This document shows positions 17,697 to 33,542 of a DNA stretch of 64,000 nt, piece after piece; position 1 is the stretch's first letter, and each line of letters opens with the position of its first letter. The notes beneath the pieces are model-generated. The model had not been told where the DNA came from. It saw only the letters and a list, made by a program, of their open reading frames with translations, and ran no database searches. The translations under genes and the position numbers were made by a program. Source of the stretch: an uncultured Rhodobacterales bacterium (GTDB lineage: Bacteria > Pseudomonadota > Alphaproteobacteria > Rhodobacterales > Rhodobacteraceae); contig CBDUOT010000001.1 in assembly GCA_965368915.1 (NCBI GenBank), positions 672 through 64,671 on the forward strand, given 5' to 3'.

Positions 17697-17728
17697 AGGC
17701 CCGATATGCCAACTTGGGAGAAGGCCCG

Positions 17729-19306
17729 ATGAAACTCTTCAACTGGACGCGCCGGGGGCTGTTCGCCGCTGTCGGCGCCGCGCTGGCTTTGGGTATGCCT
17801 TGGCAAATGGCAGAGGCGCAGACGCCTTCGGGTGTCCTGATCGTCGGCCAGATTGCCGAACCGAAATCGCTCGACCCGGCGGCTGTGACTGCAGTGAACG
17901 ACTTCCGTATTCTCGTGAACCTGTACGAGGGATTGGTGCGCTATAAATCCGGCACACTGGAAGTCGAACCGGGGCTTGCGACCGACTGGGCGATCAGTGA
18001 GGACGGAACGGAATACACCTTCACCCTGCGCGAAGGCGTCACATTCCATGACGGAACACCTTTCAACGCCGAGGCCGTGAAGTTCAATTTCGACCGGATG
18101 CTGGATGAATCCCATCCCTTCCACGATACCGGACCTTTCCCGCTCGCCTTCTTCTTCAGCGCAGTCGAGACTACCGAAGCGGTCGACGAACTGACGGTGA
18201 AGTTCACGCTGAACGCGCCTTACGCACCGTTCCTTTCGAACCTCGCCTATCCGACGGGTCTCATCGTGTCGCCCGCCGCCGTGGAGGCGAATGGCGCCGA
18301 TTTCGGCCGCAGCCCATCCGGCACGGGACCGTTCAAGTTTGCTGAATGGAGGTCGAACGAAGCCGTCGTCATCGAGCGGAACCCGGACTACTGGGGTGAC
18401 CCGGCAGGGACGGACGCGGTTGTCTTCCGGCCGATCACCGACGCCAACACCCGCGTTGCCGAGATGCTTGCCGGTGGGATCGACATGATGGTCGAGGTGC
18501 CGCCCACGTCGCTCTCGCAGTTCGGCGGAGATGCCTTCAACATCGTCGAGCAGGCGGGCCCGCACTTGTGGTTCCTGATTCTGAACGCCAAGGAAGGGCC
18601 ATTCGCCGATCAACGCGTGCGCCAGGCCGCGAACTACGCGATCAACAAGGAAGCCATCGTCAACGACGTCCTCGAAGGCACTGCCGACGTGGCCGCCGGT
18701 CCGACGCCGCCGGCCTTCGCCTGGGCTTACAACAGCGACCTCGATCCCTATCCCTACGATCCCGAGAAAGCCAAGGCGCTTCTGGCCGAAGCAGGCGCGG
18801 AAGGCGCGTCTCTGACCTTCTACGTGACCGAGGGTGGTTCGGGCATGCTCGATCCCGTTCCGATGGGCACCGCAATTCAGGCCGATCTGGCGGCAGTCGG
18901 GCTCGATGTGAAGATCGAGACCTATGAGTGGAACACCTTCCTCGGAGAGGTGAACCCCGGCCTCGAAGGCAAAGCGGACATGGCCGAGATGGCGTGGATG
19001 ACGAATGATCCCGACACTCTGCCCTATCTCGCGCTTCGTACCGAGGCATGGCCCGACAAGGGCGGCTTCAACTCGGGCTACTATTCGAACCCCGAAGTCG
19101 ACCAGCTTCTCGAAGCCGCGCGGACCTCGACTGATCAGGAGGAGCGCGCGCGCCTTTACCGAGAGATGCAGACGATCGTGAAGGAGGATGCACCCTGGGT
19201 CTTCGTCGCAAACTGGAAACAGAACGCCGTGACCAGCGACCGCGTGGAGAACTTCCAGCTTGAGCCGTCCTTCCTGCTGCATCTGCAGGATGTGGTGAAG
19301 AACTGA
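17729..19306 (+). CDS. ABC transporter substrate-binding protein, family 5 (peptide/nickel/opine type)
   Basis: ATG 17729 follows GGGAGAAGG. Signal peptide MKLFNWTRRGLFAAVGAALALGMPWQMAEAQ, then the SBP_bac_5 pattern (LDPA...NLYEGLV...). Confidence 0.88.
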   Translation: MKLFNWTRRGLFAAVGAALALGMPWQMAEAQTPSGVLIVGQIAEPKSLDPAAVTAVNDFRILVNLYEGLVRYKSGTLEVEPGLATDWAISEDGTEYTFTLREGVTFHDGTPFNAEAVKFNFDRMLDESHPFHDTGPFPLAFFFSAVETTEAVDELTVKFTLNAPYAPFLSNLAYPTGLIVSPAAVEANGADFGRSPSGTGPFKFAEWRSNEAVVIERNPDYWGDPAGTDAVVFRPITDANTRVAEMLAGGIDMMVEVPPTSLSQFGGDAFNIVEQAGPHLWFLILNAKEGPFADQRVRQAANYAINKEAIVNDVLEGTADVAAGPTPPAFAWAYNSDLDPYPYDPEKAKALLAEAGAEGASLTFYVTEGGSGMLDPVPMGTAIQADLAAVGLDVKIETYEWNTFLGEVNPGLEGKADMAEMAWMTNDPDTLPYLALRTEAWPDKGGFNSGYYSNPEVDQLLEAARTSTDQEERARLYREMQTIVKEDAPWVFVANWKQNAVTSDRVENFQLEPSFLLHLQDVVKN

Positions 19307-19412
19307 ACGAACGGGCGGGGCCAAACACTGCGCTCCGCCCGCCCTGCGATCACCCGAAGTCTGGCGCCGTGTCTTGCAAGGGCACGTGCCCCGTTCCCTC
19401 CGGAGGCGAGAG

Positions 19413-20360
19413 GTGGGCAGCTACATATTCAAGCGACTGATCTCGGCCGTGCCCGTTTTGCTCGGTATCACGATCATCGTCTTCCTGATCATGGCTATGA
19501 TCCCGGGCGATCCGGCCACCGCGATCCTCGGCAGCTACGCGACGCCGGAAAACGTCGAGAAGCTGAACCGCGATCTCGGGCTCGATAAGCCTCTGGTTCA
19601 GCGCTACTTCATCTGGCTCGGCAACATGCTTACCGGTGACTTCGGGCGATCATTCTCGCTCAACCGACCGGTTCTGGACGAGGTGCTGGAGCGCTTCAAC
19701 GCGACGCTCATTCTTGCTGGCGTGTCCTTCGTTCTCTGCGCGGTTCTGGGCATTCTTGCCGGCGTCGTGTCGGCTGCGCGGCAATACGGGCTGGCCGACA
19801 AGGTGATTACCTTCACGGTTCTCATCGGCATCTCGGTACCGTCCTTTTTCCTCGGCATGATGATGATCCTCCTCTTCGCCGTGAACCTGCGCTGGCTGCC
19901 TGTCTCGGGCATGTACGCGATATACGGTGGGGGGGATTTGCCGGACCTTCTTTACCACCTGATAATGCCCGCGCTCGCGCTGTCCGCCGTGGCCACCGGG
20001 GTCATCGCGCGCCTCTCGCGCTCCGCGATGCTGGAGGTGCTCCGGCAGGACTACATCCGCACGGCGCGCGCCAAGGGCGTTCCGGAACGGCGGGTGATCA
20101 TGGGTCACGCCCTTCGTGCCGCCATGGTCTCGATCATTCCGATTCTGGGCATCCAGGCGGGCTTTGTCCTGTCGGGCGCGGTCTACATCGAGATCGTATT
20201 CCAGTGGCCCGGCGTGGGCCGCATGCTTGTCGATGCAATCCTCAAGCGTGACATCCTGCTGGTTCAGGGCGGCGTGGTCCTCGTCGCGGCCTGCTACGTG
20301 ATGTTCAACATCGCAGTCGATGTCGCCCAAAGCCTTCTCGACCCAAGGATCAAGACGTGA
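19413..20360 (+). CDS. ABC transporter permease (DppB/OppB-like)
   Basis: A GTG 19413 start gives (M)GSYIFKRLISAVPVLLGITIIVFLIM, the canonical DppB N-terminus. The EAA-loop region is YIRTARAKGVPERRVIMGHALR. TTG 19374 is the alternative start. Confidence 0.85.
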   Translation: MGSYIFKRLISAVPVLLGITIIVFLIMAMIPGDPATAILGSYATPENVEKLNRDLGLDKPLVQRYFIWLGNMLTGDFGRSFSLNRPVLDEVLERFNATLILAGVSFVLCAVLGILAGVVSAARQYGLADKVITFTVLIGISVPSFFLGMMMILLFAVNLRWLPVSGMYAIYGGGDLPDLLYHLIMPALALSAVATGVIARLSRSAMLEVLRQDYIRTARAKGVPERRVIMGHALRAAMVSIIPILGIQAGFVLSGAVYIEIVFQWPGVGRMLVDAILKRDILLVQGGVVLVAACYVMFNIAVDVAQSLLDPRIKT

Positions 20361-22240
20361 GCGGGTTCCTGAAGCTGCTGTTCCGCAACCGGCTGGCCGC
20401 GATGGGGGCCGTCGTTCTGGCGTTCGTCCTTGTCGCAGCGATCATCGCACCGCTCTTGCCGTTGCAGGCGCCAAACATCACCTCGACAGGAGATCGTTTC
20501 ATACGACCCTTTAGCGAGGGGCACATCCTTGGCACCGATCATCTGGGCCGCGACCTGCTGTCACGTTTGTTGCATGGAACGCGGCTGTCGCTTGCCATCG
20601 GCATCGCAGCCGCTTTGATCGCGGGCACGATCGGCTCGGCGATCGGCATCATCGCCGGCTATTTCGGGGGCCGGACAGACAACCTGATCATGCGCGGCGT
20701 CGACATGCTGATGGCCTTTCCCTACATCCTGCTCGCTCTCGCCATCGTTGCAGCACTCGGGCCGGGCTTGATGAACGCTTTGGTCGCCGTCGCCGCCGTC
20801 AATATCCCGTTCTTCGCGCGCAACATCCGCGGCGTTACCGTTGGCCTCGCCGGGCGTGAGTTCATCGACGCGGCGCGGCTGTCGGGAATGGGAAACACCC
20901 GCATCATTCTGTTCGAGCTTTTGCCGAATGTCCTGCCGGTCATCGTCATCGCGATGTCGACCACGGTTGGTTGGATGATCCTTGAGACGGCGGGGCTTTC
21001 GTTCCTCGGCCTCGGCTCTCAACCTCCGCAAGCCGATCTCGGCTCGATGCTGGGCGAGGCGCGTTCGGCGCTGATCACCTCGCCACATACATCGATCGTG
21101 CCGGGCGTCATGATCTTCCTGATCGTGATGAGCATTAATCTTCTGGGCGACGGCGTGCGCGATGCGCTCGACCCGCGCTTGCGGTCTGGCGCGCTGAGCC
21201 GACCGCGCGCGACAACGCTTGTCGATCGTAAAGGCGATGTTCCCGGGGCCACCGACGATCTTCTGGCCATCCAGAGCCTGAAGACCGAGTTTCGCGTTGG
21301 CGAACGCATCTACAAGGCCGTCGGCGGCGTCAGTTTGGCGGTTAAGCCCGGTGAGTGCCTCGGCGTGATCGGCGAGTCGGGTTCAGGCAAGTCCGTCACA
21401 GCACTTTCCGTGATGGGCCTTGTCGCTTCGCCGCCCGGTGTCATCACCGGCGGTGCCGTGCGCTTCGAAGGCGAGGACCTGATCGGCGCGCCCTATGCGA
21501 CCCTGCGGCAGAAGCGCGGCAACCGCGTCGCTTACATCTTCCAGGATCCGCTCTCGACACTGCACCCGCTCTACCGCGTGGGTGACCAACTCATCGAGGC
21601 GATCCAATCTCATGAGAGCGTGAGCAAGGATAGGGCGCGCGCCCGTGCGGTCGAATTGCTGCAGGCCGTGCGCATCCCGAATGCAGAAAGCCGAATTGGG
21701 AACTTTCCGCATGAAATGTCTGGAGGGATGCGGCAGCGGGTCGGCATCGCGATGGCGCTCGCCAACGATCCCGACGTGATCATCGCGGACGAACCGACAA
21801 CCGCGCTCGATGTGACGGTACAGGCGCAGATTCTCGCGCTCCTCGACGATCTCCGGCGCGACCGGGGTCTCGCCATCATCTTCATCACGCATGACTTCGG
21901 TGTCGTGGCCCAACTGTGCGACCGAGTGGCGGTTATGTATGCAGGCCGGATCGTGGAAGAAGGGCCTACCAAGGCGGTGCTCGCCGCGCCAGCCCATCCC
22001 TACACCAAGCGCCTGATCGCCTGCGTGCCTGAATTGGGTCAAGGAAGACGAAAACTGGCAGCGATCCCCGGTATGCCGCCGGCGGTCGATGATCTGCCCG
22101 AAGGCTGTGCCTTCGCACCACGCTGCGACAAGGCGAGAGATCCCTGTCGCGTGGGAGAGGTTGCCCTGACCGCCAGCGGATCGCGTGCGGTGCGCTGTCA
22201 CTTCCCCGAGGAGGGTATCCATGCACGCTCTGCGGGTTGA
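20357..22240 (+). CDS. Fused ABC transporter permease (DppC-like) and ATP-binding protein (DppD-like)
   Basis: Single 627-aa ORF. Residues 1-~285 are a DppC-type permease ending in the usual DALDPRLR. A ~25-aa in-frame linker follows, then an ABC ATPase with Walker A GESGSGKS, signature MSGGMRQRV and Walker B VIIADEPTTALD. The GTG start overlaps the preceding stop. Confidence 0.85.
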   Translation: MSGFLKLLFRNRLAAMGAVVLAFVLVAAIIAPLLPLQAPNITSTGDRFIRPFSEGHILGTDHLGRDLLSRLLHGTRLSLAIGIAAALIAGTIGSAIGIIAGYFGGRTDNLIMRGVDMLMAFPYILLALAIVAALGPGLMNALVAVAAVNIPFFARNIRGVTVGLAGREFIDAARLSGMGNTRIILFELLPNVLPVIVIAMSTTVGWMILETAGLSFLGLGSQPPQADLGSMLGEARSALITSPHTSIVPGVMIFLIVMSINLLGDGVRDALDPRLRSGALSRPRATTLVDRKGDVPGATDDLLAIQSLKTEFRVGERIYKAVGGVSLAVKPGECLGVIGESGSGKSVTALSVMGLVASPPGVITGGAVRFEGEDLIGAPYATLRQKRGNRVAYIFQDPLSTLHPLYRVGDQLIEAIQSHESVSKDRARARAVELLQAVRIPNAESRIGNFPHEMSGGMRQRVGIAMALANDPDVIIADEPTTALDVTVQAQILALLDDLRRDRGLAIIFITHDFGVVAQLCDRVAVMYAGRIVEEGPTKAVLAAPAHPYTKRLIACVPELGQGRRKLAAIPGMPPAVDDLPEGCAFAPRCDKARDPCRVGEVALTASGSRAVRCHFPEEGIHARSAG

Positions 22241-23177
22241 GAATCTGTCGAAGACCTTTTCCCGGGGGCGAACGCTTCTCGGTCCGGAAAAGCCCGGCGT
22301 CCGCGCGGTCCGACCCGTGTCATTCGCGGTCTCGACTGGCGAAACGCTGGGCGTCGTAGGGGAATCCGGTTGTGGAAAGTCCACCTTCGCCCGGATGCTC
22401 GTCGGGCTTCTGCCACCGACAACCGGCCGGATAGAGATCGAGGGCAAGGCGCTCGACAACGCCGACCCCGCCGCGTTCGGCCGCATGATTCAATACGTCT
22501 TTCAGGATCCGATCAGCAGCCTCAACCCGCGCAAGACGGTCCGCCAGATAATGGAAGCGCCGCTGAAGCGCCTGCACAAAATGGACAAGGCCCAGCGCGG
22601 CACCCGCATCCGCGAGATCTTCGATGCCGTAAACCTGCGCGAAGAGTTCCTCGACCGGTACCCGCACGAATTCTCGGGTGGCCAGGCGCAGAGGATCGGT
22701 ATTGCGCGTGCATTGGCCGCCGACGCGCGCATCATTATTCTGGACGAGCCGGTCTCGGCGCTCGATGTCTCGGTTCAGGCTCAGGTGCTGAACCTGCTCG
22801 CTGATCTCAAGAACCGGTTCAATCTGACCTATCTGTTCATCAGTCACGATCTGGCCGTCGTCGAGGCCGTGAGTGACCGGGTTGTCGTCCTCTACTTCGG
22901 CTCGGTGGTGGAAATCGGCAGGGCCGAAAGGATTTTCAAGAGCCCGAAGCACCCCTATACAAAGCTCCTCGCCGACAGCGCGCCGGTGGTGGGCCGACCT
23001 CTCGCCGCACCCGAACAGAAGGACAGCGAGTTGCCCGACCCGCTCAACCCGCCGCCCGGATGCGCCTTCGCCGGACGCTGCCCACGAGCGACCGAGCATT
23101 GCAGGACAACCGAGCCACGACTTCAACAAATGGGAGATGACCAGCTTGCCGCCTGCCACTACCCGATCGAAGGATGA
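22221..23177 (+). CDS. ABC transporter ATP-binding protein (DppF/OppF-like)
   Basis: ATG 22221 gives MHALRVENLSKTF. Walker A GESGCGKST, signature FSGGQAQRIGIARAL, Walker B IIILDEPVSALD, and an oligopeptide-type C-terminal extension. It overlaps the previous gene by 20 nt. Confidence 0.88.
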   Translation: MHALRVENLSKTFSRGRTLLGPEKPGVRAVRPVSFAVSTGETLGVVGESGCGKSTFARMLVGLLPPTTGRIEIEGKALDNADPAAFGRMIQYVFQDPISSLNPRKTVRQIMEAPLKRLHKMDKAQRGTRIREIFDAVNLREEFLDRYPHEFSGGQAQRIGIARALAADARIIILDEPVSALDVSVQAQVLNLLADLKNRFNLTYLFISHDLAVVEAVSDRVVVLYFGSVVEIGRAERIFKSPKHPYTKLLADSAPVVGRPLAAPEQKDSELPDPLNPPPGCAFAGRCPRATEHCRTTEPRLQQMGDDQLAACHYPIEG

Positions 23178-23910
23178 ATCGCGCTCGAGCCGCCCGGTTC
23201 AGGTCGCCGAAGCCATCAAGCGCTGGGTGGTCGAACACGGATTGCAGGCGGGTGACCGTTTGCCGAGCGAGCCGGAACTGATCACACGTTTCGGTATGTC
23301 CAAGGGCACGATTCGCGAGGCGATGCGGCTTCTGGAGGCGCAGGGTTTGATCACCACGCGGACGGGACCGCGCGGCGGCAGTTTCGTCCATGAAGTGTCC
23401 AAGGAGCGCGCCCGCGCACTTCTGGGCAACTACTTCTACTTCAAGAACCTGACCATAGCCGACATCTACCAACTGCGCCGCATTCTCGAACCCGAGGTCG
23501 CCGCCTCTCTCGCCGGGCGCCTCAGTGATGCGGCGCTCGACGAACTCGAAACCAACATTGCTACCTATTCGGAACCTTCGCAGACACTCGAGGAGGAGCG
23601 CGACTACCATGTCCGTTCGCTTCGGTTCCATGGCTTGCTTGCCTCGCACTCGGAGAATGCGATGCTGGCCTTCCTGATCGATTTCATCGTCAGCATGCTC
23701 GCTGACCTCACGGTCTATCGCAGACTGTACTCGCCCCCGAATGTGGAACTTTGGGAACGCGGGCGCGACCACCAGGAGCGGCTCGTGCAGGCTCTGCGCG
23801 AAGGCGACGCGGATGCCGCCCGAACGATCATGCTGTCCCATATGCAGATCGCGCAGAAGCACATGGAAGGTCAGGAAGCCCAGATGCTGCGCGGGTTCAT
23901 CACCGAATGA
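23137..23910 (+). CDS. GntR-family transcriptional regulator, FadR/FCD subfamily
   Basis: Winged HTH LPSEPELITRFGMSKGTIREAMRLLEAQGLITTRTGPRGGSFV, followed by an all-helical FCD-like C-terminal domain. The start is uncertain (ATG 23137 or TTG 23146). The track ORF from 22873 overlaps the ATPase gene out of frame. Confidence 0.8.
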   Translation: MTSLPPATTRSKDESRSSRPVQVAEAIKRWVVEHGLQAGDRLPSEPELITRFGMSKGTIREAMRLLEAQGLITTRTGPRGGSFVHEVSKERARALLGNYFYFKNLTIADIYQLRRILEPEVAASLAGRLSDAALDELETNIATYSEPSQTLEEERDYHVRSLRFHGLLASHSENAMLAFLIDFIVSMLADLTVYRRLYSPPNVELWERGRDHQERLVQALREGDADAARTIMLSHMQIAQKHMEGQEAQMLRGFITE

Positions 23911-24987: not shown

Positions 24988-27900
24988 ATGGCTAGGATCT
25001 CGATCCTCGCGCGGCTCGTCTTCCTTTCCGCAGTGCTACTCGCGTTCCTCATCGCGACCAATGCGCTTTTGTCATCGCGACTTTCGCGTAATGCCGAGGC
25101 GATTTCCGAAGGTGCCTCTGCAATCGGGGTTCTTACGCACGCCCACGCCGCGAGCACCCATTTCGGGGAACTGAAGTATTGGCTGTCGGATCTGTCCGTC
25201 AGCCTCCTCATGCGCTCCGAGCAGAACGCGCTGACCGCGCGCGAGGCACTGGAGGCCGAACTCGCCGTTCTTGAGCCAGTCGCATCCGATCATGTCGCGG
25301 TGATCCGTACCGAGATCGACGGGCTGCTGGAACAATCCTTCCTTGCTGTCGATGCCTATACCGAGGATCAGCGGGTCCTCGGCAATTCGCTGGTCGCGAA
25401 GGGACAGCAGCATATTCGTCGTGTCGATGCCGAGCTTGGCGAACTGGTGGCCGAGCTGGAGGCCGCAGCAGTCGCCAAGAGCAATGCCGCCCATTCAGAA
25501 GCGGCCCAAGCGGTCAGGCTTTCAACCGGCATCGTCATCGCGGCAGGGCTTGTCGGGCTTTTGCTGACGCTGTTGGTCGTCGGTTCCATCACTTCGCCTC
25601 TCAGACGGCTCTTGGCCGCGATGAAAGAGATCACCGGGGGCAACCTTGCGGCCGAATTGCCAAAGCCCGGCCATGACGAGATCGGCGCGATGACCCGGAC
25701 GCTCGGCCTCTTCCGTGACAGTCTTGCCGAACGCGAACGCCTGGCGGCGGCCCGCGAAGAAGCGGACCGCGAGATCAAGCGGCTTCAGGTGCAACTGACC
25801 GAGGCGATCGAGGCGATCAGCGAGGGCTTCGCGCTCTTTGATGCCGAGGACCGGCTGGTCATCTGCAATGAACGTTACAAGCAAATGTATGCCAAGATCG
25901 GCTTTGACATTCGCCCCGGATGCACCTTCACCGAAATTTCCGAGCACGTGGCAAATTCAGGAATCATAGATGGTGCCACCGCAGGATGGGCCGAGAACCG
26001 CATCCGTCAGCACCGCAATCCCGAAGGTCCGTTCGAGCAGAAGCGCAGCAACGGCACCTGGATGAAAATCAGCGAACAGCCCACCGAAGCCGGCGGAATC
26101 GTTGGCGTCTTCACCGATATCACCGAGATGAAGGAGCGTGAGGCAAAGCTGCAGGAACTGGTCGACAGCCTCGCCGAAGCGCGAGATGTGGCGCTGAAGG
26201 CCACGACCGCGAAAAGCCAGTTCCTCGCCAATATGAGCCATGAGATCCGCACGCCGATGAACGGGGTCATCGGGATGAGCAACCTTCTCATGGACACCGA
26301 CCTTTCGCCCGAGCAGATGGACTTCGCCCGCACGATCAACGAAAGCGCCGAAAGCCTGCTGACGGTCATCAACGACATCCTCGACTATTCCAAGGTTGAG
26401 GCAGGCAAGCTGGAACTCGAGCGCGTGGCCTTCAATCTGCGCGATTGCGTCGAGGGTGCGCTGGATCTCGTCGCGATGGCAGCGGCGCGAAAGGGGCTGG
26501 ATCTGGCCTACTACATCGAGCCGGGCGTGCCTGAGACCATCGTCTCGGACGTCACAAGGCTTCGGCAGGTGCTCCTGAACCTCATCAACAACGCGATCAA
26601 GTTCACCGAGAAGGGCGAGGTCGTACTAACCGTCGCGCCCGGGTCGGATGACGTTCCCAAGGGCGAATGCGAACTGCTCTTCGCAGTGCGCGATACCGGA
26701 ATCGGCATTCCCGCCGACCGCAAGGACCGCCTTTTCCAGTCTTTCAGCCAGGTCGATGCGACCACGACGCGGCGATACGGTGGCACAGGCCTCGGCCTCG
26801 CAATCAGTCAACGGCTGGTGAATCTCATGGGCGGACGGATCTGGGTCGAGAGCGAACCCGGCGAGGGTACGACCTTCCGTTTCACGCTCACTGCACCCAA
26901 GGGCGAAACGATCGGAACGGTGAACCTGAACGAAGCGCGACCCGACCTTGAAGGCAAGCGGGTGCTCATCGTCGACGACAATCAGACGAACCGGGTGCTG
27001 TTGACGCGCCAGACCACAAGCTGGGCGATGGAGCCGGTCGCCGTCGAGGTGCCAGAAGAAGCGCTCCGGATGGTGGCCGGGGGCGAGAGGTTCGACGTTG
27101 CGATCCTCGACATGCATATGCCCGGATTGGACGGTGTGGATCTCGCTCAGAAGCTGCGGGGGACCGCGGCAGGGAAGGGCATGCCACTGATCCTCCTGTC
27201 CTCGCTCGGCCAGTCGAACGACCATAGTCCCGGCGAACTTGCCAAGGCGGATTTCGCCGAAGTTCTCGCCAAGCCGGTCAAGCCCTCGCCCCTTCTGAAC
27301 ACGCTCGTCAGTCTCTTCGCAGGCAAGCCAATCCGGGTCATCGACCGGGCGCAACGCAAGAAGCCGACCTTCGACGAGACCTTGGCGGAGCGATTGCCTC
27401 TGCGCATCCTTCTTGCCGACGACCATGTGACGAACCAGAAACTCGGGCGGATGATCCTTAAGCGGCTCGGATACCAATCCGACGTCGCGGGCAATGGCCG
27501 CGAAGTGGTCGAGGCGGTGGCGCGTCAGCCCTACGACGTCGTCCTGATGGATATCGAGATGCCGGAAATGGACGGCATGGAAGCCACGCGCCGGATCATC
27601 GCCGATCATCCCGAGCAAACGCGCCCAAGGATCATCGCGGTCACCGCGAACGCCATGGACGGGGACCGCGAACGGTTTATCGAAGCGGGTATGTGCGACT
27701 ACGTCAGCAAGCCAATTCGCGTCGATGCGCTGGTCAAGGCACTGCAAGCCTGCTCCGACGCGAAAATGAAGGAGACCGAAAAGATGTCCGACGCAACGCG
27801 CGCAACCTTTGATCCCGCGGCTCTCGACACGCTTCTCGACACAATCGGCGGCGACCGGGAAGCCTTGGGCGAACTGATCGAGAGTTTTCTTGAGGAAGGC

Positions 27901-28146
27901 CCGGATCTGATCGCCAAAATCGAAGATGCAGTGCGCAACGGCGATGCAGAGGGCTTGCGTCAGGCCGCACATACAATGAAGTCGAGCGCCGCCGATTTCG
28001 GCGCGCTTGAGCTATCGCATCTGTGCCGCGAGATCGAAGCGAAGGGGCGCGAGGGCGACGTCATCGGCGCGGCAGCGTTGTCCGAGAGCGCGGCCGTGTC
28101 GTTCGGCGCAGCGCGAGAGGAGCTGCAGAAAATGCAGATGCGCTGA
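24988..28146 (+). CDS. Hybrid sensor histidine kinase / response regulator (TM - periplasmic helical domain - TM - HAMP - PAS - HisKA - HATPase_c - REC - REC - Hpt)
   Basis: 1052 aa. Two TM segments flank a ~170-aa helical periplasmic region. HAMP: PLRRLLAAMKEITGGNL...DEIGAMTRTLGLF. PAS: ISEGFALFDAEDRLVICNERY. H-box: SHEIRTPMNGVIGMS. G-boxes: DTGIGIP and GGTGLGLAI. The two receiver domains have acceptor contexts VAILDMHMPGLDG and VVLMDIEMPEMDG. C-terminal Hpt: AAHTMKSSAADFGA. Confidence 0.9.
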   Translation: MARISILARLVFLSAVLLAFLIATNALLSSRLSRNAEAISEGASAIGVLTHAHAASTHFGELKYWLSDLSVSLLMRSEQNALTAREALEAELAVLEPVASDHVAVIRTEIDGLLEQSFLAVDAYTEDQRVLGNSLVAKGQQHIRRVDAELGELVAELEAAAVAKSNAAHSEAAQAVRLSTGIVIAAGLVGLLLTLLVVGSITSPLRRLLAAMKEITGGNLAAELPKPGHDEIGAMTRTLGLFRDSLAERERLAAAREEADREIKRLQVQLTEAIEAISEGFALFDAEDRLVICNERYKQMYAKIGFDIRPGCTFTEISEHVANSGIIDGATAGWAENRIRQHRNPEGPFEQKRSNGTWMKISEQPTEAGGIVGVFTDITEMKEREAKLQELVDSLAEARDVALKATTAKSQFLANMSHEIRTPMNGVIGMSNLLMDTDLSPEQMDFARTINESAESLLTVINDILDYSKVEAGKLELERVAFNLRDCVEGALDLVAMAAARKGLDLAYYIEPGVPETIVSDVTRLRQVLLNLINNAIKFTEKGEVVLTVAPGSDDVPKGECELLFAVRDTGIGIPADRKDRLFQSFSQVDATTTRRYGGTGLGLAISQRLVNLMGGRIWVESEPGEGTTFRFTLTAPKGETIGTVNLNEARPDLEGKRVLIVDDNQTNRVLLTRQTTSWAMEPVAVEVPEEALRMVAGGERFDVAILDMHMPGLDGVDLAQKLRGTAAGKGMPLILLSSLGQSNDHSPGELAKADFAEVLAKPVKPSPLLNTLVSLFAGKPIRVIDRAQRKKPTFDETLAERLPLRILLADDHVTNQKLGRMILKRLGYQSDVAGNGREVVEAVARQPYDVVLMDIEMPEMDGMEATRRIIADHPEQTRPRIIAVTANAMDGDRERFIEAGMCDYVSKPIRVDALVKALQACSDAKMKETEKMSDATRATFDPAALDTLLDTIGGDREALGELIESFLEEGPDLIAKIEDAVRNGDAEGLRQAAHTMKSSAADFGALELSHLCREIEAKGREGDVIGAAALSESAAVSFGAAREELQKMQMR

Positions 28147-28168
28147 AATCAATAAACCGGGGGGGACT

Positions 28169-29719
28169 ATGGCTGAGGCTCAGGGACGTGTGCTTGTGGT
28201 CGACGATCACAAGACAAATCGTATGAAGCTTGCGCTGGCGGTACAAAACCTCGGCCACGGGGTGGAAACCGTGGCGAGCGGGCAGGAATGCCTCGACGCG
28301 CTCAGACGGGACCGGTTCGACGTCGTGCTGCTCGACATCGTCATGCCCGAGATGAACGGCTTTCAGGTTCTTGCCGCGATCAAGGCCGACCCCGCCCTGC
28401 GCGACATCCCCGTAATTGTCATTTCCGCGCTCGAGGATACCGAAGATGCGGTCCGTGCAATCGAACTCGGGGCCGACGACTTCCTGACCAAGGCGTTCAA
28501 CCCGGTTCTGCTGAAGGCGCGCCTTGGCGCAGGGCTCGAACGCAAGCGGTACCGCGACAAGGAACTCGAGTACCTCCACCAGGTTGACCGGCTCGCCGCC
28601 GCCTCAGGAGTCGTTGAAGGCAAGGACTTCGATCCGGCAAGGCTCGGCCTCGACGATATTGCTCGACGAGACGACCAACTCGGCAACCTCGCGCGGGTCT
28701 TCCTGCAGATGGCTGGCGAGGTTTATCGCCGCGAACAGATCCTCCGGCAGCAGATCAGTCTGCTGAAAGGCGGGTTTCTGCTTCTGGTGCTTGGCGCCGC
28801 ATGGGGCCTGGTCCCATCCCTGTCGCGTATCATCATGCTGGACGGGCTGAAGCCCCTCGGCGTGGCGTTCTGGACGATCAGCCTAAGCGCGGTTCTGATG
28901 ATGATGGCGTCCCTCCTGACCGGGCGTTACCCGCACGCGACTGGGCCAGCGATCCGAAGCTACTTGATCCTTGGCCTCATCGGCTGCGTGCTTCCGCAAC
29001 TCTTCCTGTTCTGGGCTGCGGGGAACGTTCCAGCAATGATCATCGCCATCGTGCTCGCCGCCGAAAGTTTCATCGTCTTCATCATCGCCGCCTCGATGGG
29101 GCTTGAGGCACCAAGCCTGAAACGCTTCCTCGGCCTCAGTCTAGGTCTTGCCTGCGTTGCGCTCATCATGGTGCCAGGCAGCGATAATTCGGGAGTAGCC
29201 AGCTGGTTCTGGATACTGGTCACGCTGGCCGTGCCCTTCTGCTACGCGCTGGAAGACATCGTCATAGCCGCCCTGCCCGAAACAGATGCAGACATCTTCG
29301 GCTCCGCCACCGGCATCACCATCGCTGCGGCGCTCACTCTCGCGCCGGTGACTTTCGCAACTGGCTCCTTCATCTCGCCGGCCGAGGCGATCGCGGGATT
29401 CGGCTGGGCCTTCCTCCTCATCGCCGCGCTCAGCGCTTTTTCGACCGTGCTCCTGATCTACGCGATCCGCACCACCGGCGCTGTGTTCGCAAGCCAGGCG
29501 GGCTATTCGATGACCGCGGGTGGCATCCTTTGGAGCGTCCTGCTCTTGAACGAGCAAATGACCCTATGGGTATGGGCGGCGCTCGCGTGCCTCGTTTCGG
29601 GACTCGCGCTGGTGATGCCCAAGCAGATAGATGGCGAGGCTGACGTGGACCAGCGCATGGCGAAAGCCCAGCCCACAGCCCCCAAGGGCGCGCCCGGTTC
29701 GACGGCTCCCGGCGAATGA
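28169..29719 (+). CDS. Response-regulator receiver domain fused to a DMT/EamA-type 10-TM permease
   Basis: ATG 28169 lies 22 nt after the kinase stop and gives 516 aa. Residues 7-120 form a complete REC domain (DD at 12-13, acceptor Asp56 in VVLLDIVMPEMNG, conserved S/T and K in FLTKAF). A helical linker follows with a HAMP-like segment DDQLGNLARVFLQMAGEV. Then come ~300 aa of repeated hydrophobic helices with the two-repeat EamA pattern. The track ORF from 28007 is an out-of-context extension overlapping the kinase gene. Confidence 0.8.
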   Translation: MAEAQGRVLVVDDHKTNRMKLALAVQNLGHGVETVASGQECLDALRRDRFDVVLLDIVMPEMNGFQVLAAIKADPALRDIPVIVISALEDTEDAVRAIELGADDFLTKAFNPVLLKARLGAGLERKRYRDKELEYLHQVDRLAAASGVVEGKDFDPARLGLDDIARRDDQLGNLARVFLQMAGEVYRREQILRQQISLLKGGFLLLVLGAAWGLVPSLSRIIMLDGLKPLGVAFWTISLSAVLMMMASLLTGRYPHATGPAIRSYLILGLIGCVLPQLFLFWAAGNVPAMIIAIVLAAESFIVFIIAASMGLEAPSLKRFLGLSLGLACVALIMVPGSDNSGVASWFWILVTLAVPFCYALEDIVIAALPETDADIFGSATGITIAAALTLAPVTFATGSFISPAEAIAGFGWAFLLIAALSAFSTVLLIYAIRTTGAVFASQAGYSMTAGGILWSVLLLNEQMTLWVWAALACLVSGLALVMPKQIDGEADVDQRMAKAQPTAPKGAPGSTAPGE

Positions 29720-29845: not shown

Positions 29846-29922
29846 GATTGCATGACGGACGATGCAGATCCTTTCGACGCGTCATTGCGACAAGCGATCT
29901 GTGGATGGAGCGCCAACGACCC

Positions 29923-29940
29923 ATGCAATCAAAATTGCAT
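29923..29940. promoter_or_regulatory. Palindrome ATGCAAT-CAAA-ATTGCAT upstream of the fructosidase/sucrose-type operon
   Basis: Perfect 7-bp inverted arms, 30 bp upstream of ATG 29970. Confidence 0.3.
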
Positions 29941-29969
29941 TCGCCCGGAAACCGGGACATGCTTGCGTC

Positions 29970-31520
29970 ATGTACGCTTCACACGGCTTTCTGCGCTCGG
30001 ACATTGGTGACGTCGATGTTGTCTTTCACCAAGGCCTTTACCACCTGTTTCACCTCGTCCTTCCAAACCATGATTTCATCGCGCATGCGGTGAGCAAGGA
30101 CGGCATGACGTGGCGGCGCGTCGCAAATGCGCTGTTTGTGGGGGATCCCGGCCAATGGGATGATGACATGCTCTGGACGATGCATGTGACGCCCGACCCA
30201 GAGCGCCCAGGCTCTTGGCGGATGTTCTACACTGGTCTTTCGCGTGCCGAGTATGGACGCGTCCAGCGCATTGGTCTGGCGCGGTCCGACGATCTGTACA
30301 CATGGAAACGCTGCGAGTCCGGCGATTACCCGCTGGAAATCAAAGGTCCCTGGTACGAATCCGATATCGACGAGGGCCGGAAATGGGTCAGTTTCCGCGA
30401 TCCGTTCTTCTATCACGACCCTGTAAGCGGTGACCGGCTGCTCATGGCATCAGCACGCGTGAAGAACGGACCGGTCGTCCGTCGGGGATGCGTTGGCCTC
30501 GCTCGGGAAACCGCGCCTGACCGGTTCGAATTCGCGGCGCCGCTTTACAAACCGGGGCTTTACGATGACGTCGAAGTACCGAACCTCGTTCATCAGGACG
30601 GCCGGTTCTATCTGATCGGATCGATCCGCGAGGATACCAAGGTTCATTACTGGTATGCGGACAAGATCGAGGGCCCCTATCAGAACTTTGCCGACAACGT
30701 GCTATTGCCCAAGGGTAATTACGCGGCAAGGGTTTGCCGAAGCGACGGCCGCTATCTGCTTTTCAACTTCTTCCAGCGCAAGGAAACCATCTATGGCCGC
30801 GAAACCGTGGCTCGGCTGTTGCCGCCACCCAAAGAGCTGGTCACAGACAAGAACGGGCGGTTGCTGCTGAAATCGTTCAAGGGTTTCGATGCCCTCGTTC
30901 ACCATTCTTTCGACATAACGAATCCAGCTGAATTCGATGCCCTGTTCGGCAACTCTCACGCAGCGATTAGCGGCGACGACGGGTCGATCCATGTCGCCTG
31001 CCCAAGCGGGTTCGAGGCGTTTCTTCTGCCGGGCGAGCACGAGGATTTCCGGCTACGCGCAACCGTCAAACTCGAGGGCGTGGGCAAGTGCGGCATGGTC
31101 CTGCGCGTCTCGGAGGAGGGCGACGGCTACTTCCTGTCTCTCGACCTAGTCAAAGGCTACGCGCAGCTAAGACGATGGGGCGCCAATCCGCGTCCCGAGT
31201 TCGAATTCGCTTTCCAGTACGAGACGCTTCAGGCCGGTAACTACGTCGCGCTTGATCCTGCGCACCCCCTACAGATCGAGGTCGTCACTCATGGCGCCTA
31301 TATCGAGTTTTCGATCAACGGTCAGGTCACTCTATCGGTCGTGGACGATACATACAGCGCGGGCCGCGTGGGATTCTACACAGAGTCGGCGCAACTGAAG
31401 CTCGAAAACATCAGCATGGAGTGGCTGCGCCGCCCGGTTGCCGAGGAAGAAGCTGTCTATACAGCGACACGCTCAACCGAAACTCTCGACGTCACGCTGG
31501 ACGAGTCCGCGGCCTCATGA
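29970..31520 (+). CDS. Divergent GH32/GH-J clan beta-fructofuranosidase-like hydrolase with C-terminal beta-sandwich (lectin/DUF1080-like) domain
   Basis: From ATG 29970, the segment LRSDIGDVDVVFHQGLYHLFHL aligns with the GH32 WMNDPNG...YHLFYQ nucleophile block. FRDPFFY matches the RDP motif, and DVEVPNL matches the EC(P) acid/base motif. The C-terminal ~170 aa (KCGMVLR...GRVGFYTESAQLKLENISM) looks like a concanavalin-type sandwich. There is no signal peptide. Confidence 0.6.
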   Translation: MYASHGFLRSDIGDVDVVFHQGLYHLFHLVLPNHDFIAHAVSKDGMTWRRVANALFVGDPGQWDDDMLWTMHVTPDPERPGSWRMFYTGLSRAEYGRVQRIGLARSDDLYTWKRCESGDYPLEIKGPWYESDIDEGRKWVSFRDPFFYHDPVSGDRLLMASARVKNGPVVRRGCVGLARETAPDRFEFAAPLYKPGLYDDVEVPNLVHQDGRFYLIGSIREDTKVHYWYADKIEGPYQNFADNVLLPKGNYAARVCRSDGRYLLFNFFQRKETIYGRETVARLLPPPKELVTDKNGRLLLKSFKGFDALVHHSFDITNPAEFDALFGNSHAAISGDDGSIHVACPSGFEAFLLPGEHEDFRLRATVKLEGVGKCGMVLRVSEEGDGYFLSLDLVKGYAQLRRWGANPRPEFEFAFQYETLQAGNYVALDPAHPLQIEVVTHGAYIEFSINGQVTLSVVDDTYSAGRVGFYTESAQLKLENISMEWLRRPVAEEEAVYTATRSTETLDVTLDESAAS

Positions 31521-32245
31521 TGACCGGTGCCCGGAATTCTCCGTGGCTTCTGGTTAGTGATATCGACGATACACTGACAGGCGATGACGCTGCTTTATCT
31601 CGCCTGGCCGAAGCAGTGATCCGGAACCGAGATCGCCTCTGTTTCGCGGTGAACTCCTCCCGGCCCTCCGGCAGTGTGGCCGAAACATTGCGCGACGATT
31701 TTCCGCCTAATCTGGTCCCTGACGCGATCATCACCGCGCTCGGAACCGAAATAACCGTCGGCGGCAAACGACTCCCGCCGCATTTTTCCGACTGGCCCGG
31801 GAACGACGTGTTCGAGGCACTCGCAGCGCTGGGCCACCGACCTCACGCCGCGGAGTTTCAGACCGCTTACAAGGTGAGCTTCGCGGTGCCGCCCGATGCG
31901 CAGCCGGAAGCCCGGCAGGCTCTCGCGCCCTTCGAGTGTCAGATCATCGCGTCTGGGTCGGACGATTTCGACGTGATCCCGCCGGGCGCCGGAAAAGGCG
32001 CCGCCACGGTGTTTCTGGCCGGTGAACTTGGCTATGATCTCGAACTGGTGGTAGCCGCTGGCGATAGCGGCAATGATGTAGCGATGATGAAGGCCGTTCC
32101 TAACCGGATTGTTGTCGGCAACGCGCGCTCCGAACTGGTTGCCGCGCTGCCGCCGGGGACGTTCTTTCATGCCCGTGATCACCATGCGGCTGGGGTATTG
32201 GAGGGACTTGTGGAATTCGGCATCATCCCGCCCCCCGACTACTGA
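31517..32245 (+). CDS. HAD-IIB phosphatase, sucrose-6F-phosphate phosphohydrolase-like (SPP family)
   Basis: ATG 31517 overlaps the preceding stop (ATGA). HAD motif I LLVSDIDDTLTG and motif IV AAGDSGNDVAMM (GDSGND is characteristic of SPP-type enzymes). 242 aa. Confidence 0.7.
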   Translation: MMTGARNSPWLLVSDIDDTLTGDDAALSRLAEAVIRNRDRLCFAVNSSRPSGSVAETLRDDFPPNLVPDAIITALGTEITVGGKRLPPHFSDWPGNDVFEALAALGHRPHAAEFQTAYKVSFAVPPDAQPEARQALAPFECQIIASGSDDFDVIPPGAGKGAATVFLAGELGYDLELVVAAGDSGNDVAMMKAVPNRIVVGNARSELVAALPPGTFFHARDHHAAGVLEGLVEFGIIPPPDY

Positions 32246-32267
32246 AACGAAACAAGCAGGAACACCC

Positions 32268-33542
32268 ATGGCAGGCAGCATCTCCGGTTCACTCATGATG
32301 ATCTCGCTGCACGGCTATGTTGCCGGCACACCCGAACTCGGCAAGCCGGATACAGGCGGGCAGGTCGTTTTCGTGATGGAGCTCGCCAAGCGTTTCGCCC
32401 GGCTCGGCTACAATGTCGATGTCATGACGCGGCGTTTCGAGGATCAGCCGGCTGAGGACGTCATCAACGAAAACCTTCGTGTCCGCCGCATTCCGTTCGG
32501 TGGCCCCGACTTCATCCGCAAGGAAGACATGCACGACTGGTACGGCGACTTCGTGTCGAACGTGCTTGCCGCGGTCCGGCGTCACGGGCTGCGCTACGAT
32601 GTGGTGAACAGCCATTACTGGGATGCCGGGGTGGCGGGCCAGAAGATCGCCGAGGAACTCCAGATTCCGCATATCCACACGCCGCATTCGCTTGGCTGGT
32701 GGAAAGCGAAGGACATGAAAAGCCTCGGCGAAGGCAAGAAGGCCAACTACCGGTTCGAAGAACGCATCCAGAAGGAATTCGTGCTTTACCGGAATTGCGA
32801 CCATATCATCGTCACCTCCGAGCAGCAGGCGCAGATCATCGAGGATCACTACGACCTGCCGAGTGAGCACATCACGATGATCCCGCCCGGGATCGACGAA
32901 CAACGCTTTACCGCGATCACGCCTATGCAGTTGGACGAGGTCCGCGCAAGGCTCGGCATGTCGCAGAACGACGTCTACGTTGTCGGTCGCGCGGCGACGA
33001 ACAAGGGCTACGACCTGATGATCCAAGCCCTGCCCCACCTGCGCGAGTTGCAGCCTGAGGCACGGCTGGTGCTTGCAGCGGGCGCGAATTCTACCGAGGA
33101 CAAGAAGCTCGTTGAAACATGGAAGAAGCAGGCCGCCGAGCTGGGCGTCTCGGATGCCATTTCCTGGCGCGGCTACATTTCCGACGACGATCTTGCCGAC
33201 TACTACCGCGCGCCGGGCGTCTTCGCCTTACCCTCGCGCTATGAGCCTTTCGGGATGACCGCGGTCGAGGCGATGTGCTGTGGCACGCCCACGGTGCTGA
33301 CCACCCGCGGCGGACTTCATGAGCAGATCGAGTTCGGGCGCCATGCGCTGATCGCAGATCCCACCCGGCCACGAGAGTTCGCGGCGATGGTCAACATGCC
33401 GATGCAGCATTCCTGGCTGCGCGAGAAGCTCATGGTCGAGGGCGCCCGATTTGCCCGCCGCACCTTCGGCTGGACCGGCATTGCACGCCGCACCCTTGCG
33501 GTTTTCGACGCCTTTCTGGGGCGGTACGACACGGCATCCTGA
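32268..33542 (+). CDS. GT4 glycosyltransferase, sucrose-phosphate synthase-like (could equally be a mannosylfructose-phosphate synthase-type enzyme)
   Basis: ATG 32268 gives 424 aa. MMISLHGYVAGTPELGKPDTGGQVVFVMELAKRFARLGYNVDV is the SPS/SuSy-type N-terminal block. The GT4 EX7E motif is PSRYEPFGMTAVEAMCCGTP. Confidence 0.7.
   Translation: MAGSISGSLMMISLHGYVAGTPELGKPDTGGQVVFVMELAKRFARLGYNVDVMTRRFEDQPAEDVINENLRVRRIPFGGPDFIRKEDMHDWYGDFVSNVLAAVRRHGLRYDVVNSHYWDAGVAGQKIAEELQIPHIHTPHSLGWWKAKDMKSLGEGKKANYRFEERIQKEFVLYRNCDHIIVTSEQQAQIIEDHYDLPSEHITMIPPGIDEQRFTAITPMQLDEVRARLGMSQNDVYVVGRAATNKGYDLMIQALPHLRELQPEARLVLAAGANSTEDKKLVETWKKQAAELGVSDAISWRGYISDDDLADYYRAPGVFALPSRYEPFGMTAVEAMCCGTPTVLTTRGGLHEQIEFGRHALIADPTRPREFAAMVNMPMQHSWLREKLMVEGARFARRTFGWTGIARRTLAVFDAFLGRYDTAS

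Follow-up and report, generated by a model that had tools for sequence, protein, structure and literature searches.

The subject of this analysis is a gene at 28169..29719 on the forward strand of a 64-kb window (the whole stretch of DNA that was analysed, 64,000 nucleotides from an uncultured Rhodobacterales bacterium), which encodes a single protein of 516 residues. In this protein a phospho-accepting receiver domain (REC) is joined, through a divergent HAMP domain, to a ten-helix membrane domain of the DMT/EamA class of secondary carriers. The preferred interpretation, in which somewhat better than even confidence is placed on the basis of sequence comparison and structural modelling, is that this REC-HAMP-DMT protein would be a membrane-embedded response regulator whose output is the carrier, with phosphorylation of the receiver gating transport by way of the HAMP domain. 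Transport would then probably be controlled through phosphorylation and not at the level of gene expression. The observation made from the sequence alone is confirmed, and each part of its interpretation that sequence analysis was able to contradict has held up; the switching of transport by a rotation or piston movement of helices is an inference. A broader proposition, to which slightly less than an even chance is assigned, is that the window encodes the first two-component phosphorelay in which a secondary transporter acts as the terminal response regulator and a HAMP domain working “in reverse” gates solute flux, and that the protein is also one branch of an undescribed cassette present in at least 972 clusters and at least eight effector classes.

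The reading frame of the gene is unbroken from the ATG at 28169 to the TGA stop codon at 29717-29719. The ATG lies 22 nucleotides past the stop codon of an upstream hybrid kinase gene (28144-28146), and a G-rich sequence that reads as a ribosome-binding site, GGGGGGGA (28159..28166, +), ends 3 nucleotides on its 5' side. The listing of open reading frames also contains a longer version that begins with TTG at 28007 and overlaps the kinase gene; the true start is placed at 28169, because the homologues of the protein start at the equivalent position. Pfam assigns the Response_reg family to residues 8-118 (E 1.7e-28; score 99.5 bits, cut-off 30.2) and the EamA family to two stretches further along the chain (E 3.4e-19; score 69.9 bits, cut-off 28.2).

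The receiver domain itself spans residues 7-118 (28187..28522, +). The catalytic residues stand where the sequence-only reading, which had described the domain as catalytically complete, had placed them: the acidic pair D12 and D13, the acceptor D56 within VVLLDIVMPEMNG, S86, and K108 within the motif FLTKAF, to which the switch aromatic F105 can be added. In an alignment of 81 family sequences D12, D56 and S86 are invariant, and D13, F105 and K108 are conserved in at least 90%. The secondary structure of the AlphaFold 2 model describes a (βα)5 fold over residues 7-111, followed by the remainder of helix α5, and a Foldseek comparison of the N-terminal part with solved receiver structures gives TM-scores of 0.84-0.96, with PleD among the top matches. 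PleD is also the best NCBIfam match of this part, at a score of 106.8 against a cut-off of 474, which is, as for all the NCBIfam matches, far under the equivalog cut-off. By its residues and predicted fold the domain is a true receiver with a full catalytic set and not a pseudo-receiver.

The presence of REC and EamA in one open reading frame, which had been the starting claim of the sequence-only reading, is borne out by a homologue search that covered 5.8 billion proteins. The search returned at least 120 full-length clusters of about 500-520 residues, with identities from 100% down to about 40%, all of which carry both PF00072 and PF00892. One cluster, with 14 member sequences, is 100% identical to the window protein; a homologue with 86% identity comes from an isolate genome of Defluviimonas aquaemixtae, where it lies on a 2.4-Mb contig, and several others also lie on megabase-scale contigs. 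Among the matches listed, the named sources are all Alphaproteobacteria, from Rhodobacterales/Paracoccaceae and from Hyphomicrobiales (among them Devosia, Pseudaminobacter, Taklimakanibacter, Rhizobium setariae and Hoeflea), and the public annotation of these proteins is generic, either “response regulator” or a mis-assigned “PleD”. The alternative that a frameshift or a mis-assembly has joined separate REC and EamA genes, against which the original reading had warned, is left with a negligible probability: the frame is continuous, the same architecture occurs in the 120 or more independent clusters, including those from isolate genomes and megabase-scale contigs, and the junction at which the HAMP domain passes into the first transmembrane (TM) helix is among the best conserved parts of the protein. 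The artefact can for these reasons be ruled out, and the comparison of sequences identifies one conserved gene, whose family is coherent and, clustered at 90% identity, numbers over 100 clusters.

The segment that joins the receiver to the membrane domain runs from the end of REC (about residue 118) to TM1 (about residue 198). It is helical, as had been proposed, but its length is about 80 residues instead of the 90 first estimated, and it contains more than the single HAMP-like second amphipathic helix (AS2) that had been noticed in it. That helix is present, as the motif DDQLGNLARVFLQMAGEV (residues 168-185; 28670..28723, +), in which D169, L171, G172, L174, V177, F178, M181 and A182 are each conserved in at least 90% of the 81 aligned sequences. 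It belongs to a whole divergent HAMP domain at about residues 136-191 (28574..28741, +), with a first amphipathic helix (AS1) at about 135-150, a connector at about 151-167 and AS2 from 168, and this domain is preceded by an extension of receiver helix α5, a junction helix at residues 119-135 (28523..28573, +) that is present in the model and contains a conserved run of basic and acidic character (K126, R127, R129, D130, E132 and Y135). Conserved positions Y135, V139, L142, A145, L171, L174, F178 and M181 follow the 3/4 spacing of heptad a and d positions, and positions 146, 149 and 185, which are mostly hydrophobic in the family alignment, fit the same spacing. In the AlphaFold 2 model α5 continues unbroken in one helix over residues 112-149, residues 150-169 form a connector 20 residues long in which there are two short turns, and a second long helix, residues 170-223, carries AS2 straight into TM1.

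That the resemblance to HAMP domains is a real homology is indicated by several comparisons of sequence profiles. When the family linker was aligned by hhalign with a reference set of 15 canonical TM-linked HAMP domains (taken from the window kinase, from matches in a search of the Protein Data Bank (PDB) and from homologous loci), the probability was 94.5% and the E-value 7.5e-8 over 51 columns, which correspond to residues 136-191. Searched against PDB sequences, the family linker profile gives a weak match that spans exactly the HAMP domain of NarQ, residues 179-227. The Pfam HAMP model matches the linkers of three homologues, P0077, P0084 and P0083, at 22.5, 21.0 and 16.5 bits (E 1.4e-4 to 0.011), which is under the 25-bit cut-off, over model positions 7/8 to 50/51 of 53. 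In the more distant protein P0220 the linker profile matches residues 297-376, within which Pfam places a HAMP domain at residues 318-365 with 35.2 bits, over the cut-off, and another distant protein with the same element, P0171, has a Pfam HAMP match of 28.2 bits, also over the cut-off. On these profiles the linker is accordingly described as a continuation of receiver helix α5 that leads into a HAMP domain which is divergent but complete, with AS1, a longer connector and AS2.

With the canonical HAMP domains (those of Af1503, NarQ and Tsr; PF00672) the window domain shares the helix-connector-helix layout, the heptad a and d positions and the AS2 motif D-x-L-G-x-L-A-x-x-F-x-x-M. It differs from them in a connector that is 4-5 residues longer in the window family, and in the lack of conservation of the AS1 proline and of the Glu of “DEIG”. 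It also differs in position, since canonical HAMP domains directly follow a TM helix while this one follows a receiver and precedes TM1, and the presumed direction of the signal is inverted, with a cytoplasmic receiver as input and an output helix that enters the membrane. Mean pairwise identity in the family falls from 0.61 in REC to 0.55 in the linker, 0.41 in the DMT domain and 0.20 in the C-terminal tail. Conservation of the linker at nearly the level of the receiver favours a conformational coupling between receiver and membrane domain over a passive tether.

The membrane domain (residues 198-484; 28760..29620, +) consists of two EamA repeats and is followed by a poorly conserved, largely disordered cytoplasmic tail (residues 485-516; 29621..29716, +) in which the predicted local distance difference test score (pLDDT) is 42-63. 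For the whole model, which was built from the family alignment, the mean pLDDT is 88.9 and the predicted template-modelling score (pTM) is 0.74. This model, a check that had been suggested along with the original claim, predicts ten TM helices, with AS2 continuous with TM1, and the even number of helices puts the receiver and the C-terminal tail on one side of the membrane, the cytoplasmic one. In a Foldseek search with the membrane part, the triose-phosphate/phosphate translocator (5y78) and the choline importer LicB (7paf) are each matched at a TM-score of 0.77, and SLC35B1 (9i20) at 0.71. These three carriers share with the window domain the fold of two inverted EamA repeats over about 295-300 aligned columns, but the sequence identity is only 15-17%, and no shared substrate can be read from the matches; to our knowledge none of the three carries a receiver or a HAMP domain. 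A phmmer search against PDB chains gave no meaningful sequence match for the DMT part. Inside the TM helices a set of polar residues is conserved (E299, Y359, E362, Q443, Y446, T449 and S456), and their location hints at the substrate pocket that would be expected of a carrier.

The origin of the phosphate is suggested by the genes upstream, which together with the REC-HAMP-DMT gene form an operon-like module that the sequence-only reading had passed over: a haem-c protein, a hybrid kinase with an Hpt domain and, last, the REC-HAMP-DMT gene. The kinase (24988..28146, +; 1052 residues, domains assigned by Pfam) has two TM helices followed by HAMP (residues 197-247), PAS_7 (274-385), HisKA (408-473), HATPase_c (521-636), two Response_reg stretches, of which the best is at 807-919, and finally an Hpt domain at 962-1033 (27871..28086, +; E 5e-14). 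Before it lies the gene for a Tll0287-like periplasmic protein (PF11845; 24152..24922, +; E 3.4e-16) with a signal peptide and a C-terminal haem-c motif, CLACH (CxxCH), which from these features is probably a haem-based co-sensor, of redox state or of a gas ligand, for the kinase or the phosphorelay. The parts that make up a phosphorelay of the His-Asp-His-Asp type, namely HisKA with HATPase_c, an internal receiver, an Hpt domain and a terminal receiver, are encoded together, and the Hpt domain of the kinase is the likely immediate phosphodonor to D56.

A similar arrangement accompanies the gene elsewhere. A hybrid kinase and an Hpt domain, either fused or separate, are encoded directly upstream of it in 11 of the 12 independent loci compared (the window, L001, L002/L003, L004, L006, L008 and L009-L013), and in the remaining locus, L007, an Hpt gene follows immediately downstream and no kinase gene is adjacent. 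Where the Hpt gene is separate it encodes 116-122 residues, and in L002, L003, L004, L005 and L006 it runs 4-8 nucleotides into the beginning of the REC-DMT gene. The sensor parts of the kinases vary among the loci, from HAMP-PAS_7 with the haem protein to GAF-GAF and to PAS_7 beside an SBP_bac_3 gene. The only neighbours that are conserved are the kinase gene, the Hpt gene and sometimes the Tll0287-like gene, which also precedes the kinase gene in L001 and L008. No further response-regulator gene is present in the module, either in the window or in the compared loci. Because a kinase and an Hpt domain adjoin the gene in 11 of 12 loci, and an Hpt gene adjoins it in the twelfth, the REC-HAMP-DMT protein is, as far as gene order can indicate, the last acceptor in its own dedicated His-Asp-His-Asp relay. 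In two homologues the partners are found in a single chain. P0147 (1353 residues) has REC-HAMP-DMT followed by PAS-PAS-HisKA-HATPase-REC-REC, in which the kinase core shares 48% identity with the window kinase, and in P0156 (1086 residues) PAS-GAF-GAF is fused C-terminally to REC-HAMP-DMT, the parts being joined by a low-complexity linker; by their domain composition both are fusions of the Rosetta-stone kind, in which the regulator and the kinase that belongs to it form one protein.

The unit formed by the receiver and the divergent HAMP domain is not confined to proteins with a DMT domain. An index-free HMMER search with the linker profile over 1.84 billion representative sequences found the linker element in at least 972 clusters at 50% identity (E <= 1e-3); a separate homologue search with the linker profile returned nine short fragments only, which were uninformative. 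Wherever the N-terminus is present, a receiver lies directly N-terminal to the linker in the best 150 linker matches, 35 of which bear the DMT domain of the window family. In others the REC-HAMP cassette is attached to adenylate or guanylate cyclases, with or without AAA_16, to Ser/Thr protein kinases, to SpoIIE/PP2C phosphatases, to σ54 activators with HTH_8, to ParA/MinD-like ATPases, to HisKA-HATPase, or to cNMP-binding domains with DUF6909, and a further, numerous class of about 400 residues has the order HisKA-REC-HAMP-coiled coil. Since it drives such varied catalytic outputs, the cassette is, in terms of its domain partners, a generic transmitter from input to effector, and by analogy the DMT domain would be the regulated effector in the window protein.

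Two further proteins bear on how the cassette and the carriers came together. P0136 (534 residues), also among the best 150 linker matches, has the REC-HAMP cassette on a 10-TM EamA domain that lacks BLAST similarity to the window DMT domain, which suggests a second, independent receiver-DMT fusion; given this dissimilarity, either fusion of the cassette with a DMT carrier has happened repeatedly or the divergence among the carriers is very deep. P0130 (1027 residues) is a natural in-frame tandem, (REC-HAMP-DMT)x2, with halves that are 48% identical, and may be either a covalent heterodimer or a pair of adjacent paralogues joined through the loss of a stop codon; in its homologue alignment 62 of 62 homologues cover the second half only. 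The tandem fits a dimeric working unit, for which it is an indirect hint. The proteins of about 380-440 residues among the cassette carriers (P0169-P0173, P0177, P0180-P0183 and about 40 more) have a HisKA-like N-terminus, a receiver, the divergent HAMP domain and a coiled coil with a conserved “QVAEITETDYF”, and no catalytic ATPase domain was detected in them.

These outputs also bear on the alternative that the protein is a phosphate sink or a membrane scaffold, in which the receiver would drain phosphate from the Hpt domain or recruit partners while the DMT domain served as an anchor, with transport either constitutive or nil. Transfer from Hpt to REC is reversible, receiver-only phosphate sinks occur in other phosphorelays, and no substrate can be proposed for the DMT domain, all of which speak for such a role. 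A plain anchor, however, would need neither a 10-TM domain with invariant polar residues, nor a linker maintained at 55% mean identity, nor a helix that continues from HAMP into TM1; the cassette is attached to catalytic outputs in other proteins, and no alternative output regulator is encoded nearby. The sink or scaffold is for these reasons considered improbable.

In the mechanism that is proposed for the phosphorylation-gated carrier, a periplasmic or cytoplasmic signal would activate the kinase, and phosphate would pass from His to Asp, then to the His of the Hpt domain and finally to D56. Phosphorylation of D56 would alter the packing of a receiver dimer at the α4-β5-α5 face, and the altered packing would shift the α5/AS1 helices and toggle a dimeric four-helix HAMP bundle. 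Toggling of the bundle would displace or rotate AS2 and thereby TM1, which is one of the helices presumed to line the transport cavity of the DMT domain, so that the motion of TM1 could lock or release the carrier. The transport of a small metabolite could in this way be switched within seconds, with no need for transcription, by a HAMP domain of the chemoreceptor type that is run in the opposite direction, from the cytoplasm to the membrane. The features of sequence and model on which this scheme is built, and which can be seen in them directly, are the order of the domains, the continuous helices, the gradient of conservation and the conserved polar residues.

Several points weigh against the gated-carrier interpretation. 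The window protein has no Pfam HAMP match at the 25-bit gathering cut-off, and the assignment of its linker depends on profile-profile comparison and on transitive evidence from homologues. As to the carrier, a search for a named NCBIfam DMT subfamily produced only TIGR00950 (2A78), at 17.2 bits against a cut-off of 230.2, and no metabolic flanking gene is conserved across the compared loci. The obligate dimer that the mechanism calls for is an assumption, and several structurally characterised DMT carriers are regarded as monomeric units. Finally, coupling through a HAMP domain is in principle bidirectional, and the transporter could inform the receiver instead.

The last of these points leads to the alternative in which the protein is a transceptor or co-sensor, whose DMT domain senses a substrate or the state of transport and signals back, either through the HAMP domain to the receiver or by contact to the kinase, in order to tune the relay. 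Kinases with a fused SLC5 domain, CbrA for example, work in this manner, as do DctA/DcuB together with DctB/DcuS. P0147 and P0156 lend this possibility some weight, because they put the DMT domain where the membrane sensor of a kinase would sit, and transmission through HAMP is possible either way in principle. The joint between DMT and PAS in P0147 is, on the other hand, a long low-complexity segment with no rigid helix, which looks like tethering and less like a route for conformational transmission, and proteins of the window type have only a short, unconserved tail past TM10. The kinase moreover has sensors of its own, in its periplasmic domain, its HAMP and PAS_7 domains and its haem-c partner, and if the REC-HAMP-DMT protein were an input, the module would be left with no other response regulator as the real output. 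A transceptor is on this evidence thought unlikely, although it keeps an appreciable share of the probability.

The comparison of the REC-HAMP-DMT protein with known systems makes clear in what respects it would be new. Response regulators of the REC-GGDEF type, such as PleD and WspR, resemble it in that the receiver accepts phosphate, possesses the whole catalytic quintet and stands at the end of a two-component pathway, and in an output that is presumably driven by receiver dimerisation through the helix that continues α5. The window protein differs from them in that its output is a 10-TM secondary carrier, neither a soluble enzyme nor a DNA-binding domain, and in the HAMP domain that stands between receiver and output. 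The nearest known functional analogue is the secondary transporter LacS of Streptococcus thermophilus, to which a IIA-like domain phosphorylated by HPr(His~P) is fused, and in which the carrier likewise bears its own phospho-accepting domain and a phosphotransfer chain tunes transport post-translationally. LacS has no sequence relationship to the window protein: it combines His phosphorylation of the phosphotransferase-system type and a C-terminal IIA domain with a carrier of the GPH family, while the window protein combines an N-terminal, Asp-accepting receiver and HAMP coupling with a DMT carrier. The nearest known architecture is that of CbrA and CrbS, sensor kinases with a fused SLC5/SSS domain, in which a transporter fold is covalently joined to two-component domains. 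There the transporter is the input of the kinase, whereas in the window protein it follows the receiver and is the sole possible output domain; the CbrA/CrbS layout is approached by the variants P0147 and P0156.

In a full-text search of the literature neither fusions of a receiver with an EamA/DMT carrier nor the term “REC-HAMP” turned up in any paper, with a passing mention in the response-regulator surveys of Galperin (2006, 2010) being possible. A response regulator with a transporter as its output appears to be unstudied. The description of such fusions as rare calls for qualification, in view of a coherent family that exceeds 100 clusters at the 90% identity level and of at least one unrelated EamA lineage with the cassette, that of P0136. 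Two-component systems have been studied almost entirely as switches of transcription, second messengers or motility. If the proposed role is correct, a receiver wired to a carrier would allow an environmental signal to act on the import or export of a metabolite quickly and at the post-translational level. It would also offer a compact genetic system, with an input that can be controlled chemically (phospho-aspartate or the beryllofluoride BeF3-), in which to study how a HAMP bundle moves a TM helix and how an allosteric input can lock the alternating-access cycle of a DMT carrier. Being modular, the REC-HAMP cassette could in addition be used in engineering, as a part that places enzymes or carriers under the control of a kinase.

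The genes directly downstream of the module, at 29862..33542 (+), form a three-gene cluster that resembles one for the synthesis and turnover of sucrose. One gene encodes a GH32-like protein with a C-terminus like that of 3-keto-disaccharide hydrolases, another the sucrose-6F-phosphate phosphohydrolase S6PP (E 4e-36), and the remaining one a GT4 glycosyltransferase that has an N-domain of the sucrose-synthase type and is similar to sucrose-phosphate synthase. The cluster is probably unrelated to the REC-HAMP-DMT gene, because it is not conserved beside such genes elsewhere. The assignment of a substrate to the carrier on the strength of this neighbourhood was rejected, as the GH32-like, S6PP and GT4 genes are absent from all the other compared loci.

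On the other side of the module, at 17714..23177 (+), lie genes for an ABC importer of the oligopeptide/dipeptide type, with an SBP_bac_5 protein, permeases and a second ATPase. Within this set a reading frame of 627 residues at 20357..22240 joins a permease to an ATPase, and may be either an unusual fusion or two genes read through. A GntR/FCD regulator follows the importer at 22873..23910 (+). The whole 64-kb window contains no tRNA or tmRNA gene and no Rfam family at the gathering threshold, and a scan of it for terminators and promoters revealed nothing relevant. The G+C content is 60-66% throughout, and the GC skew is steadily negative after about 42 kb.

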